Below are positions 45,885-50,311 of a stretch of 64,000 nt of DNA, piece after piece. Source of the stretch: Actinomycetes bacterium (GTDB taxonomy: Bacteria; Bacillota; Sulfobacillia; Sulfobacillales; JAIMBI01). The notes under the pieces were generated by a model, which was given only the letters and a program-made list of their open reading frames with translations, had not been told where the DNA came from and ran no database searches. Position 1 is the first letter of the stretch. The number at the start of each line of letters is the position of its first letter. Location: NCBI GenBank assembly GCA_023565505.1, contig JAIMBI010000006.1:3885-67884 (forward strand), in the 5' to 3' direction. A program made the position numbers and the translations under genes.

Positions 45885-46820
45885 TCACCGGACCAGCCCC
45901 AGGACCGTGAGGCAGGCGGGGACCGTCAGCGCGCTGGCGACGGTGGACAGCGTGATGGTCTGGGCCACCTGTTCCGGGGCCGCCTCGAACTCGCGCGACA
46001 GGATGATGGCGTTGATTGCCACGGGCGTCGCAATCTGAAGGACCAAGGCCCGGGCGGCGGCCGGCGGAAGGGGGAGCACGGCCGCCAGCCCCGCGGCGAC
46101 GGCGGGCATGACCACGAGCCTGAGCCCGGTGCTCCACCACGCCACGGCGCTGCGAATGTCCCGGAGCCGCCAGTCTGCGATGGTGGCGCCGAGCACCACC
46201 AGGACGGTGGGCGAATAGGCGTTGCCCGCGATGGTGGTCGCCGTGGCCAGGCCTTGGGGGACCGGCCAATGCAGCAGGTCGACCAGCGCCGCGGCCACCA
46301 TGGCCCACATGGCAGGCAGACGGACGACCCGCCGCCACGCGGCGCGGGGATCCATGCTGCCCCGGCTGGCCAGATAGGCCCCGACGGTGTTGACGGCGAC
46401 GATCTGGGTCAGGACGTAGATGACGGCAGCCTGGAGACTTCGGGGCCCCAAGGTGAACGCGACCAGGGGTAGGCCCAGGTTTGAGGAGTTGGAGAAGGCC
46501 GTCGTGAGGTCCAGGGCCGCCTGCGCGCCCTGGTCCGCGTGCAGCGCCCGGCCGACGCCGCGGCTCAGGAGCACCGCCGCCAGCACCACACCGGCGGCGA
46601 AGACCACGACGGCGGTGAGGTCGTGCAGCGACAGTCCCCGTTGGGTCAAAGCGTGGAAGACGAGCCCGGGCGTGAAGACGTACAGCGCCGTCCGCGACAT
46701 GGCGGTCGAGTCGATGCGGAGCCGCCGCCGCAACAGGACCCCGGCCACCACGAACGCCGCCACCAGCAGGAGCGTCTGGCCGGCGAACCCGAGTTCGGCA
46801 AGCACGCGACCGGCGGACAC
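45885..46820 (-). CDS. AEC (auxin efflux carrier) family transporter
   Basis: LYVFTPGLVF, FSNSSNLGLP, P..L.VLG, RL..MP, A.P.AIN; about 10 TMs; AAGGAGGA RBS. Confidence 0.9.
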   Translation of the reverse strand: MSAGRVLAELGFAGQTLLLVAAFVVAGVLLRRRLRIDSTAMSRTALYVFTPGLVFHALTQRGLSLHDLTAVVVFAAGVVLAAVLLSRGVGRALHADQGAQAALDLTTAFSNSSNLGLPLVAFTLGPRSLQAAVIYVLTQIVAVNTVGAYLASRGSMDPRAAWRRVVRLPAMWAMVAAALVDLLHWPVPQGLATATTIAGNAYSPTVLVVLGATIADWRLRDIRSAVAWWSTGLRLVVMPAVAAGLAAVLPLPPAAARALVLQIATPVAINAIILSREFEAAPEQVAQTITLSTVASALTVPACLTVLGLVR

Positions 46821-46849
46821 GGCGGTTCCTCCTTGTATCTAGGTACTAG

Positions 46850-47230
46850 AGATTGACACTATTAGCCGTCGTCCTTGGGGAAAGGATGGGGGTCCGGGGG
46901 AAGGGAAACCCCTTGTGGATTGTGGGGATAACCTGGATAACCCCATTCCCCTCCGCTCGCCAGGACCGACGTCGTTTCCCGTCGAATCGGGCTGGTAGCC
47001 CGGTGCGGGGTCAGGCCTTTCCTCCTTGCGCCCGAGCGCTGCGAAAGATTGCCGCCCCGAGCCGGCGGGGTTGATCGCCGACACCCACGGTGCGCCCCCG
47101 GCGGAGTCACGGAGAGCAGCAGCTCCGTGCGTGCCGTCTCCCCGGGACCGAAGCGCCGATCCGTGCGCAAGGCTGCGGCGGCCCCGCCGGCCGACGGGAC
47201 CCCCTTGCCGGGGCACAACCCCTGGGGAAG
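46850..47230 (+). ncRNA. candidate bridge RNA in IS110 left non-coding end
   Basis: About 400 nt non-coding with many hairpins; TTCCTCCTTG at 47019-47028 is identical to the left flank 46826-46835. Confidence 0.55.
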
Positions 47231-47243
47231 GGAGGTGAGAGTC

Positions 47244-48500
47244 ATGTCCGAATTGCTGGTGGGGATTGACGTCAGCCGGGACACCCATCACGTGGCCTTC
47301 ACGGATGCCACCGCCACCCATCGCTGGGGCCGCCTGACCGTGCCCAACGACGCCGGAGGCGCCCTCCAGCTGGCCCAGGCGATTCACGACCAGGCCGCCG
47401 CCCATGGGTGCGACACCGTCCGCATCGGCTGCGAGGCCACGGGCGTCTACGCCTGGCATCTGGCGCTCTGGCTGAGCCAGCCCACGGACCCGCCCCGGCC
47501 CTGGGCGGTCTACCTGCTCCAGCCGCGCACGGTGCACCGGTACGCAGCCACGTTCGCGAGTAAACGGGCCAAGACGGACCGCCAGGACCCCTGGCGCATC
47601 GCCGAGGTGCTGAGCCATCCGGCGTGGTTGCCCCGGCCCTTCCAGTTGGCCGAGCGCACCATCGCTCTGCAGCGCCTGACCCGGCATCGGCACCACCTGG
47701 TGCGCCAGCTCACGCGCCTCAAGAACTACGCCGCGAGCTACCTGTTCTTGAAGGCCAACGGCTTGGTCTGCCATCCGCCGTGGTCCGACCCGTGGGGCGC
47801 GGCGGCTGCCGCTGTCCTCCTCCAGTACCAGACGGTGGAGGATATCGCCGCCGCCCCCTTGGCGGAGCTGGTCGCCTGCCTGCAACGCGGGGCCCGCGGC
47901 CATCTGGCCGACCCGGACCGGGTGGCCCAGGCGGTCCGCCAAGCGGCCCGGGCTTCGTTCCGGTTGCCGGAGGTCCTCAAGGAGCCGGTGCATCAGATCC
48001 TGAGTTGGACCTTGCAGGACATCCGGTATCTCGAGGCCCAGATCAAAGCCGTCGATCGACGGATTGCGCGCGAACCGGCGGCCCGCACGAACCGGCTGCT
48101 GACCGTCCCGGGGATCGGGCCGGTGTTTGCGGCCGGCATCTTGGCCGAAATCGGGGACATTACCTTCTTCCCCGATGATGACCAAGTGGCCCAGTTCGCG
48201 GGCTTGACGTGGCCGCCCGCCGCGTCGGGGCAGTACACGCCCGAACATCCGCCATTGGCCCGGACCGGCAACGCCTATCTCCGCCACTACCTGGTCGAAG
48301 CTGCGAACAGCGTCCGACGGCACGACGCCACATACGCAGCGTACTATGAACGCAAGCTGGCCGAGAGTACGCCGCCCGCACACCATCGGGCGTTGGTGCT
48401 CACCGCACGCAAACTGACACGCTTGGTGACCGCTCTGCTGCGCGATGACCGGGCGTACGACCCGACGTACCGCTCTGTGCGGCGGCGTCGTCACGGTTAA
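47244..48500 (+). CDS. IS110-family transposase/recombinase
   Basis: GIDVS (D), CEATG (E), KTDRQD (D,D), TVPGIG, AEIGDI..F, FAGL.....SG (Ser), GNAYLR, ARKL; GGAGGTGA RBS. Confidence 0.96.
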   Translation: MSELLVGIDVSRDTHHVAFTDATATHRWGRLTVPNDAGGALQLAQAIHDQAAAHGCDTVRIGCEATGVYAWHLALWLSQPTDPPRPWAVYLLQPRTVHRYAATFASKRAKTDRQDPWRIAEVLSHPAWLPRPFQLAERTIALQRLTRHRHHLVRQLTRLKNYAASYLFLKANGLVCHPPWSDPWGAAAAAVLLQYQTVEDIAAAPLAELVACLQRGARGHLADPDRVAQAVRQAARASFRLPEVLKEPVHQILSWTLQDIRYLEAQIKAVDRRIAREPAARTNRLLTVPGIGPVFAAGILAEIGDITFFPDDDQVAQFAGLTWPPAASGQYTPEHPPLARTGNAYLRHYLVEAANSVRRHDATYAAYYERKLAESTPPAHHRALVLTARKLTRLVTALLRDDRAYDPTYRSVRRRRHG

Positions 48501-48706
48501 CCGCCTCCTTGACGACCGGCAGGGGCCAGAGCACCAGATCCTGCCAGTCACCATGTCCGGGGGCCTACCGGGGTTTTCGTGTGCCTCACATCCCGGTCGA
48601 AATGAGGGCTTGACACCTACACCCCACTCTTGCTCGACCGTCTTGTAAAATAAGAACGCCTTATTGGAAAACGGTACACCAGCAGTATAGCAAAAGGGGG
48701 CCCGAC

Positions 48707-49420
48707 ATGAGAGACAGAGTCGCCGAGGGACGCGGCAGTGCCCCGCTGGCCAAGTACGTTGGGTTGCTCGACCTCCTGGCGGCCGGCGGGCCGGCGACGC
48801 CCGCGGAGCTGGTGACGCGGACCGGCTTGGCCCGTCCGACGGTCTATCGGTTGCTGGCCAATCTCGAAAACCTGGGGCTGGTGCGGCGGGATGGCACGGG
48901 GGCGGTCCGCCTGGGCCTCCGGCTCATCCGGTGGGGACAGGCGGCGCTGGACCTCGACGTCGTCCAGGTGAGCCGTCCCGTCATGACCGCGCTGCACCAG
49001 CAGACGGGGGAGAGTGTCCAACTGTATGTGCCCGACGGGGATGCGCGCGTCTGCGTGATGGCGGTCGACCGGGGTGCGGGACTTCGGGACACGGTGCCGG
49101 TAGGGGCCCGTCTGCCGCTGGACCGGGGATCGGCCGGCAAGGTGCTCCGGGCCTTCGGGGCGGTCCGGGTCGCCTCGGAGGACGACCCGGAGCTGGCGGC
49201 GATCCGCCGGCAGGGATACGCCGAGAGCGTGGCCGAACGGGAACCGGGGGTGGCGAGCGTGAGCGCCCCCATCCGCGATCCGTTGGGGGTTGTGGTCGCG
49301 GCCATCTGCGTGAGCGGTCCGCTGAGCCGGCTCGGGCCGTCGCCCGGGGCCCGGTTCGCCGATGCCGTCGTGGAGGCAGCCCGGCAGGTGGAGGCGGCCT
49401 GGGCGCGCCGCGAGCGGTGA
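48707..49420 (+). CDS. IclR-family transcriptional regulator
   Basis: HTH GLARPTVYRLL; TGESVQL, VGARLPL..GSAGKVL, EREPGVASVSAP, SGP. Confidence 0.93.
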   Translation: MRDRVAEGRGSAPLAKYVGLLDLLAAGGPATPAELVTRTGLARPTVYRLLANLENLGLVRRDGTGAVRLGLRLIRWGQAALDLDVVQVSRPVMTALHQQTGESVQLYVPDGDARVCVMAVDRGAGLRDTVPVGARLPLDRGSAGKVLRAFGAVRVASEDDPELAAIRRQGYAESVAEREPGVASVSAPIRDPLGVVVAAICVSGPLSRLGPSPGARFADAVVEAARQVEAAWARRER

Positions 49421-49435
49421 CCGCCGTCCCGGTCC

Positions 49436-50311
49436 TCACGCCCCGCGACGAGGCGGCGCGCCGGTCGGACGGGCGAGGGGGAGGGAAAAGGCCGTGAACT
49501 CCGCGGCACCGCTGGCCAGGAAGGATCGGTTGGCGGCCCGCTTGGCCTCGAACACCGTGTGGGCGGCGTCGCGGAAAGCGGGCGGGAAGCCCAGGCTTTC
49601 CCCCTCGGCCAAGCGGGTCAGGATGCGGCGATAGGCCGCCTCGGCCCGCCGGCCCGCGTCCGGCCTGTGGGAGAGGGAGTCGGCCCGCACGCGGTAGACG
49701 TGCAACGGTTCGGGACACAACCAGGCGGCGCCGCCCGCGCGGGCCAGGGCCCCCAGGTTGAACAGGACGTCCTCGGCGAAGTCGACGGCCGGATCGAAGG
49801 GCCGTACCCAGTCCCGGTGGATGAGCGGGAAAAGAGGATGGTTCACCGCGGCGATGTCCCAGAAGTCCACCCGGCGGGGATCCGGCGGCGAGTCCGGGAG
49901 CAGCGGGCCGCGGGGCGCGTCGTGGGCGTCGTCCCAGCGGAGGATGTTGTCGAAGGCGATGCCGTCGTGGCGGGCCAGCTCCAGGAGGCGCTCGAGCTTG
50001 GCCGCGTGCCACCAGTCGTCGGCGTCAAGCACCGTAATCCATTCGCCGCGGGCGACGCGGAGCGCCGCGTTGCGGGCGACCGACGGACCGCGGGCCACCC
50101 CGCCCGAGTCCAGGAAGCGGATCCGGGGATCGGGGGGGAGCGACGGGCGATAGTCGGTGCCGTCGTCGGACACGACCAAAAGCTCCCAGTCGGATCGCGA
50201 CTGGGCTAAGACGCTCCGGACGGCCCGGCCGATGGTGGCGCCGGCCCGGTACGCCGCGAGCAGCACCGAAACCGCGGGACGCCGCAGGGCGACATCGACC
50301 CGGTCGCTCAT
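49436..50311 (-). CDS. glycosyltransferase family 2
   Basis: VSVLLAAY, SVLAQ...WEL.VVSDDG, GPSVARN, LDADD, ED; ATGA-coupled to upstream kinase. Confidence 0.9.
   Translation of the reverse strand: MSDRVDVALRRPAVSVLLAAYRAGATIGRAVRSVLAQSRSDWELLVVSDDGTDYRPSLPPDPRIRFLDSGGVARGPSVARNAALRVARGEWITVLDADDWWHAAKLERLLELARHDGIAFDNILRWDDAHDAPRGPLLPDSPPDPRRVDFWDIAAVNHPLFPLIHRDWVRPFDPAVDFAEDVLFNLGALARAGGAAWLCPEPLHVYRVRADSLSHRPDAGRRAEAAYRRILTRLAEGESLGFPPAFRDAAHTVFEAKRAANRSFLASGAAEFTAFSLPLARPTGAPPRRGA

Follow-up and report, generated by a model that had tools for sequence, protein, structure and literature searches.

The closest described systems are insertion sequences of the IS110 family. The IS621 reports describe bridge-RNA loops in which the 5′ side carries the top strand of the left half-site together with the core, and the 3′ side is complementary to the core and the right half-site (PMC11208160); in both loops the right guide is followed by a handshake position (Hiraizumi et al. 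2024, PMC11208158). Circularisation of IS621 brings a -35 from the right end together with a -10 from the left (Durrant et al. 2024, PMC11208160), and the same paper names REP elements as the natural targets of IS621. ISPpu9 and ISPpu10 of Pseudomonas putida are presented in similar terms, as IS110 elements with guide RNAs (PMC12288879; bioRxiv 10.64898/2026.03.19.712850). Insertion of IS900 and IS901 of Mycobacterium avium is reported to occur after the Shine-Dalgarno (SD) sequence and before the start codon (Doran 1997; Inglis 2003; both cited in PMC2942039), and IS900 is spanned by an antisense frame, hed, that is described as having no ribosome-binding site or start of its own (PMC8141618). 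Targeting of translation starts by IS110 elements is not new, then, and has been in print since 1997.

The window analysed here (the whole stretch of 64,000 nucleotides) contains an IS110-family element of 1,797 bp at 46834-48630 on the plus strand, counting the right copy of its CT core. We think it very probable that this is an IS621-like bridge-RNA element whose anti-SD-like guide directs it to insert at SD sequences. According to the mechanism we propose, a recombinase of the DEDD/serine type (47244-48500) would be guided, as in IS621, by a bridge RNA from the left end of the element. The target loop of this RNA (47006-47059) would bear two guides, the left one an anti-SD look-alike, so that the preferred target would be CCTCCT. 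This word would mostly be encountered as the complement of AGGAGG ahead of genes, and recombination at the CT core would place the element directly upstream of the SD, in antisense orientation to the gene, which would keep its SD, spacer and start codon but be separated from its 5′ leader and promoter. The donor loop (47075-47178, with GCAAG as right donor guide) would bind the element's own joined ends, and circularisation would set TTGACA 17 nt from TATCTA, driving the RNA. Comparison of sequences carries this reading as far as the family membership of the element, its ends, the covariation of guides with flanks, the RNA helices and the SD context in relatives; expression of the RNA and recombination activity would be expected of such an element.

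The transposase gene (47244-48500, plus strand) encodes 418 amino acids. Residues 6-167 match PF01548 (E 2.1e-25), residues 283-369 match the C-terminal Tnp domain PF02371 (E 5.2e-20), and the model NF033542, "IS110 family RNA-guided transposase", gives 217.6 bits against a cutoff of 140. The nearest solved structures among PDB chains are those of ISCro4 (E 1.5e-6) and IS621 (E 7.9e-6). Three motifs, GIDVS, EATG and KTDRQD, align with ISCro4 and are those that we take to carry the DEDD residues; an SG, presumably containing the catalytic serine, likewise aligns with the SG of ISCro4. A terminator-like hairpin kept in relatives lies 3′ of the gene, at 48556-48572 on the plus strand.

The ends of the element were placed where similarity to relatives stops, the relatives having been collected from GTDB genomes, metagenome contigs and related genomes. 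The left junction reads ..CT/TGTAT.. in 11/11 of the closest relatives, with transposases 57-100% identical to that of the window, and the right junction reads ..CACCCCACT-CT/.. in 8/8 of those with the right end present. These junctions define the core as CT and the element as 46834-48630, beginning TGTATCTAGG and finishing CACCCCACTCT; CT is also found at both junctions in every relative having both ends. The preliminary description of the locus had taken CTTG as the core, and this does not stand, since on the left side the TG already belongs to the element, as its first two bases; the right flank in the window also begins with TG, by coincidence. By alignment with relatives, the left non-coding end is 410 nt long (46834-47243, plus strand) and encodes the putative bridge RNA. 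The right non-coding end is 130 nt long, and the structured RNA is in the left end.

Several features of the left end and of related elements are recorded here for completeness. A second TTGACA occurs at 46853-46858, within the first 140 nt of the left end, followed by a G/C-rich domain at 46870-46960 (GGGGAAAGGAUGGGGG..AAACCCCUUGUGG..GGGGAUAAC) that is kept in the closest relatives and absent or replaced in L046, L047, L048 and L072. In two other relatives (L055 and L058, from genomes G025 and G035) three direct repeats of 30-31 nt with a spacing of about 65 nt, resembling a CRISPR array, lie upstream of the transposase, roughly 480-615 nt before its start; in L058 they end about 20 nt before the left junction. 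In contigs of the two sequencing runs that may be the source of the window, a variant of 48481-48607 has 125 right-end bases swapped for 128 others, suggesting that a second, related right end exists in the same community.

The host genome contains one intact copy of the element and, on contigs C5 and C17, two degraded relatives, so that the insertion genome-wide proposed in the preliminary description is not what is seen. The degraded relatives (C5:43975-44784 and C17:3063-3564; L002 and L003) are 76-78% identical in DNA, with transposase fragments containing stops, and retain the right end ..ACACCCCNCT-CT; similarity to the window at their right ends ceases after ..ACACCCCNCTCT. Small left-end fragments of the element are also present in the genome, e.g., at C5:68323-68414 (L004), as are several further IS110-family transposase genes, 35-38% identical, on contigs C4, C5, C18 and C30.

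To the left of the element lies a Mem_trans gene (PF03547) at 45885-46820 on the minus strand, and to the right, divergent from it, a gene for an IclR-type regulator identified by its domain match (48707-49420, plus strand). As the preliminary description had noted, the 10-mer TTCCTCCTTG can be read twice in the window sequence, at 46826-46835 and at 47019-47028, and the first copy is the reverse complement of the neighbour's ribosome-binding site: it contains AGGAGG on the minus strand, 7 nt ahead of the GTG start of the Mem_trans frame at 46820. The left target consists of TTCCTC plus the core CT at 46832-46833 (46826-46833, plus strand), and its minus strand, AGGAGGAA, is the SD of the Mem_trans gene. 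The right side, defined by comparison with relatives, consists of the core CT at 48629-48630 and the right target TGCTCG (48629-48636, plus strand). Beside the element, the Mem_trans gene retains its SD, spacer and start intact, and the 75-nt stretch formerly upstream of the gene (now 48631-48706) is displaced by 1.8 kb. A promoter scan of the integrated element gave 0 sigma-70-like sites, and there is thus no sign of an outward promoter toward Mem_trans.

The host genome has a G+C content of 71.5%. Its 16S rRNA ends in GGATCACCTCCTTTCT, and CCUCCUU is common to this tail and to 47019-47026, so that the description of the guide as an anti-SD look-alike is borne out. Words rich in CCTCCT are over-represented, with 8 occurrences of TTCCTCCTTG where base composition predicts 2.2, and there are 161 copies of TTCCTCCT and 25 of TTCCTCCTT against one intact element. 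No empty site came to light for comparison, none of the 7 other genomes of the family having a match to the Mem_trans protein at E 1e-30 or better. No joint skipping 46834-48630 and no circle junction were found in the contigs of four sequencing runs (two possibly the source of the window DNA and two from other hot-spring studies), contigs being prone to drop rare forms. Joins of flank to element are present in possible source-run contigs (X4 record 8, covering 46300-48460, and X1 record 1, covering 46300-46948). Loose contig ends in X7 and X8 carry ..CCTCCTTG.. ahead of the left ends of relatives.

The second copy of the 10-mer overlaps what we propose as the left target guide. In the comparative structure, the target-binding loop (47006-47059, plus strand) has an outer stem formed by 47006-47011/47054-47059 and 47014-47016/47051-47053 and an inner hairpin at 47028-47039. 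The candidate left target guide, UUCCUCCU (47019-47026), is identical to the left flank plus core at 8/8 positions in the window; the candidate right target guide is GCGAAAG (47041-47047), of which the 3′ AAG pairs with CTT, i.e., the core and the first base of the right flank. It is followed at 47048-47049 by AU, at the position predicted for a handshake guide by the rule in PMC11208158. For the comparison among relatives, the junction was taken from the CT/TGTAT motif and the guide from the aligned position just before the UGCGC hairpin. Across 10 related elements, the identity of the left guide to its own flank plus core, of a possible 8, is 8, 8, 8, 8, 8, 8, 8, 7, 7 and 7, as against a mean of 5.8 to the flanks of other elements, a difference reached in 0/20000 permutations. 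An eleventh element (L045) has just 6 flank bases, and 6/6 match its guide. The left guides themselves vary, including TTCCTCCT, TCCCTCCT, CTCCTCCT, TCGCCCCT, ACACTCCT, TGTCTCCT and others, and every related element repeats its own flank internally with letters that differ between elements. The right guides form 3, 5, 3, 4, 3, 3, 5 and 6 contiguous pairs with their own CT and right flank in eight elements, compared with a mean of 2.66 for mismatched guide-flank pairs (p=0.0013); the right half-site in the window pairs over 3 contiguous bases only (AAG/CTT). In the complete genome G013, 11/11 right flanks start with T, as predicted by the AAG of the guide. Loop and target therefore covary on both sides (0/20000 on the left, p=0.0013 on the right), as the preliminary description would have it, and the comparisons support 47019-47026 as the predicted left target guide of a bridge-RNA target-binding loop.

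The details of the loop differ from those first proposed. The preliminary description had closed it with a CUUU/AAAG stem; this stem appears in a single-sequence fold, but across 10 relatives only 52.5% of its cells are paired and there is no covariation. The loop is closed instead by the two helices of the outer stem given above, and the AAAG belongs to the right guide, as its 3′ end. A proposed pairing of GCGA with TTGC in the right target also fails, since in the observed register the terminal AG of the right guide pairs with the CT core.

The structure was tested on an alignment of the same number of relatives, with 500 shuffles and slid controls. It comprises 59 pairs, with 89.6% of cells paired and 18 pairs having changes on both sides; 0/500 shuffles scored as high, and the slid controls gave 38-46% paired. 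The structured core (46977-47199, plus strand) is closed by a long-range helix, 46977-46984/47192-47199, in which 95% of cells are paired and 2 pairs are changed on both sides. Within it are a small hairpin, the target loop, a long stem leading to the donor loop (47061-47070/47182-47191) and further inner helices, and the left guide sits in a covarying two-sided internal loop. The original assignment, a member of the IS110 family whose left end encodes a bridge RNA, is supported. An Rfam scan of 46000-49500 at E values up to 1 returned two matches, both at chance level, and no bridge-RNA family.

The donor-binding loop region (47075-47178, plus strand) has a closing stem, 47075-47078/47175-47178, nested inside the long stem 47061-47070/47182-47191, and both helices show compensatory changes. 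The right donor guide is probably GCAAG (47167-47171), which would pair with CTTGT, the core and the start of the left end, with one G-T wobble. Its location corresponds to the IS621 layout, directly before the closing stem of the second loop, and it covaries across subgroups: left ends with TGTAT carry GCAAGG at this place in 9/9 distinct loci, and left ends with CGTAT carry GCGAGG in 11 loci, the pattern having matched nothing there in the other 16. At the handshake position after it (47172-47173) is GC, and the G can pair with the invariant C before the target core, which fits the handshake rule as given in PMC11208158. For the left donor guide, the candidate ACCCACGGU (47083-47091) matches the right-end CCCCACTCT at 6/9 positions only. 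The stretch at the corresponding place in the G013 subgroup matches 7/7 donor bases but not the core, and a relative whose right end differs by one base (L017) has an unchanged left-donor-guide region, so that it brings no resolution. A second loop near 47196-47221 had earlier been proposed for donor binding. Its letters are present, at about 47195-47220, but it is not a donor loop: 47192-47199 pairs with 46977-46984 with compensatory changes, and the ACAA side that was to serve as the guide is not conserved although the TGTAT of the left end is.

The two ends also contain the parts of a possible promoter. On the plus strand, a -35-like TTGACA (48610-48615) is located 15 nt from the element end and a -10-like TATCTA (46836-46841) is at the start of the left end, both read from the sequence, with their geometry kept in relatives. 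Joining of the ends (right end, then TG plus TATCTA) would give TTGACA, a 17-nt spacer and TATCTA; relatives of the G013 subgroup have TATAAA as the second hexamer. By analogy with IS621, a promoter may be reconstituted at the joined ends.

A key question is whether the target is the SD as such or the word that SDs happen to contain. Among close relatives, the left flank has AGGAG(G), then a start codon opening a frame of at least 129 codons, for the window element and for L013, L047, L048 and L072; in L013 this is an L7/L12-like start (MAKVEEIIEAVKGM). Two more, L015 and L046, have a short left flank with an ATG at the right spacing. Of the 10 close relatives that are informative (L045 is not), three do not lie at an SD: L012 interrupts an MFS/sugar transporter gene, on the sense strand, L011 is inserted in the 3′ end of a gene for a different IS110-type transposase, and L014 sits 32 nt before a start. 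The proposal that the element inserts beside SDs, antisense to the gene, therefore holds for most relatives, which lie at the 5′ edge of the SD, and not for these three; similarly, the sparing of open reading frames is not absolute, as L012 and L011 show. The gene that is host to L011 (3-338 of that locus, plus strand) matches PF02371 with an E value of 6.4e-13, and is a case of one insertion sequence inside another.

For a wider set, we took all loci with CT/YGTAT at 300-470 nt before the transposase start. This yielded 41 distinct junctions, whose transposases share 36-100% identity with that of the window; 6 loci had too little upstream sequence. The left flank ends in CCTCCT in 26/41, as the predicted flank motif required, and in NC[C/T]CCT in 37/41; the endings TCTCCT, CCCCCT, GCCCCT, ACTCCT or GCTCCT account for 11/41 and others for 4/41. 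In most of the 41, the flank word recurs in the left end right before a hairpin. Under a lenient definition (a start on the opposite strand 5-21 nt away, with an open reading frame that reaches 60 codons or is cut off by the contig end), a start codon is found at 29/41 junctions and is lacking at 12/41. Under a strict one (flank of at least 200 nt, frame of at least 60 codons), it is found at 20/30, one of which, L012, is a false positive. For comparison, the same search finds a start codon at 1583 of the 3911 AGGAGG sites of the host genome (40.5%), and the enrichment of real SDs over the bare motif is thus modest, 63-67% against 40.5%. Where annotation is at hand the geometry is exact: the core starts 12 nt from the annotated start of the opposite coding sequence in 3/3 RefSeq plasmids with relatives 39-40% identical (Bacillus thuringiensis pHD120038, Pediococcus damnosus pL21535-2 and Anoxybacillus amylolyticus pDSM15939_1), and likewise in the window. 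In the complete genome G013, 3/7 full copies are at SD-like sites; the other four (L067, L075, L076 and L077) have left flanks identical to one another over at least 28 nt (..CAGGATT-CT), which mismatch the guide and reflect either a longer repeated unit in those copies or another repeat serving as the site. The 3′ end of the 16S gene, whose sense strand has CCTCCT, was considered as the true target and discarded, as 0/41 flanks are a 16S end; the L030 flank (GATCACCTCCT) that might be taken for one is merely an SD complementary to the 16S end.

From the 20/30 frequency and the 40.5% background, it follows that the guide selects the word, and that most, although not all, instances of the word are real SDs. 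With the agreement of guides and flanks, the CCTCCT flanks and the 12-nt spacing to the start, the central idea of the preliminary description, that an anti-SD-like guide leads to insertion at ribosome-binding sites, holds. Against it stand the poor match of the left donor guide, the 3 contiguous pairs at the right half-site of the window, the single intact element beside so many copies of the target words, the relatives not at an SD, the 12/41 junctions lacking a start codon, the four mismatching flanks in G013 and the modest enrichment. It is a further inference that selection has maintained SD targeting in this lineage. As many as three of the six bases of CCTCCT, namely the CT core and the C that can be paired by the handshake G of the donor loop, may be fixed by the mechanism. 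It is accordingly conceivable, though we consider it rather unlikely, that the element is a bridge-RNA IS110 element with no selection for SDs, in which CCTCCT-type guides result from the mechanism-fixed CT and handshake, the surviving elements are those that landed between genes, and the SD context is a by-product. The invariance of the CT core, the ability of the preceding C to pair with the invariant G after the right donor guide, insertions wherever the motif occurs, including within genes, and an SD context only moderately above the motif background are all what such an account would lead one to expect. It does not explain why two or three positions left unconstrained by any known step (C, C/T and T before the handshake C) are also kept, nor why, with the three positions further upstream varying freely, the full CCTCCT persists even where the transposases share as little as 36% identity. 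The right guides of two distant subgroups (GCGAAAG in the window and UCGAAAG in G013) also fit an extended SD, GAAAGGAGG, and the orientation of the element relative to the gene is identical at every junction where a start codon was found by the definition above.

Directed insertion by an anti-SD-like guide thus being the preferred reading, there remains a long open frame that could suggest another role for the internal AGGAGG complement. A frame of 571 codons, from the list of open reading frames and supported in relatives, runs antisense to the whole element (46839-48554, minus strand) and is codon-aligned with the transposase gene. It has a counterpart of 536 codons in a 43% identical relative (L050 1141-2751, minus strand). 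Across the transposase gene the frame is free of stops in 26/36 relatives, and over 348 nt of the left end it is open in 17/36, the corresponding figures for the other two frames being 6 and 2. Codons CTA and TCA are about five-fold rarer than other A-ending codons, and codon bias may explain part of this openness. Because the frame crosses the left end and is open in many relatives, 47019-47028 might be imagined to be the ribosome-binding site of a left-end gene on the minus strand, such as this frame; we find that very unlikely, since no ATG, GTG or TTG occurs at normal spacing on that strand (the bases are GGCCTGACCCCGCACC), the frame begins far upstream, at 48554, and the letters change in step with the flank of each element, as those of an internal ribosome-binding site would not. 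Least credible of all is a chance repeat, target duplication or terminal repeat with no RNA guide, for although TTCCTCCTTG is frequent in the host (8 against 2.2 expected), each relative repeats its own, differing flank at the same internal position (0/20000), the internal copy lies within a covarying two-sided internal loop, and the 8-mer is not repeated at the right junction.

If the guide is indeed kept on the anti-SD sequence, then the element would be an RNA-guided one that picks a short, abundant, intergenic target conserved in any new host, which would explain the presence of relatives across several phyla. It is possible, and we put this forward only tentatively, that an IS110 lineage in several phyla (Bacillota, Chloroflexota and others) has locked onto the anti-SD word as a portable landing pad, that host transcription reads through the element, and that guide RNAs account for targeting of the IS900 type. 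Were this true, the antisense frame, like hed, might be translated, with ribosomes still able to start at the preserved SD. Such a scenario would join the bridge-RNA mechanism of 2024 with the observation of the 1990s that IS110 elements seek translation starts. Natural pairs of guide and target with varied left guides are, in addition, material for testing the rules of bridge recombinases, and for annotation the element accounts for genes that are parted from their promoters with the coding sequence untouched.

A full-text literature search for "bridge RNA" together with "IS900" found no papers, and none was found linking an IS110 guide to the anti-SD, with the qualification that the supplementary target tables of PMC11208160 may hold CCTCCT-type motifs; the seekRNA paper does not mention ribosome-binding sites as targets. 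As far as the cited descriptions extend, the window element resembles IS621 in having the same two Pfam domains, a CT core at both junctions, a guide RNA in the longer left end, two internal loops, a handshake position and, putatively, a split promoter. It differs in that the proteins are only distantly similar (E 7.9e-6, over the C-terminal domain), the left end of 410 nt includes an additional 5′ domain, the donor loop has a far larger and branched insert, a long-range stem closes the RNA core, the match of the left donor guide is poor, and the natural target is an SD-like word, whereas REP elements are reported for IS621 (PMC11208160). ISPpu9 and ISPpu10 are alike in aiming a guide RNA at a short, repeated, intergenic host sequence of many copies; in the accounts cited, however, that sequence is a REP or conserved intergenic sequence of one host, whereas the lineage described here would use a translation signal of nearly all bacteria and has relatives in several phyla.

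With IS900 and IS901, compared here through published descriptions, the element shares its family and an oriented insertion at translation initiation signals (PMC2942039, PMC8141618), and with IS900 also a long frame opposite the transposase that spans the element, hed in the one case (PMC8141618) and the 571-codon frame in the other. The difference, on these same descriptions, lies in the exact position: the window element and 3/3 of its relatives on annotated plasmids are at the 5′ edge of the SD and leave the spacing between SD and start intact, whereas IS900 and IS901 enter between the two. Of interest, besides this placement ahead of an intact SD, are how widely the lineage is spread and its connection to what was seen with IS900.
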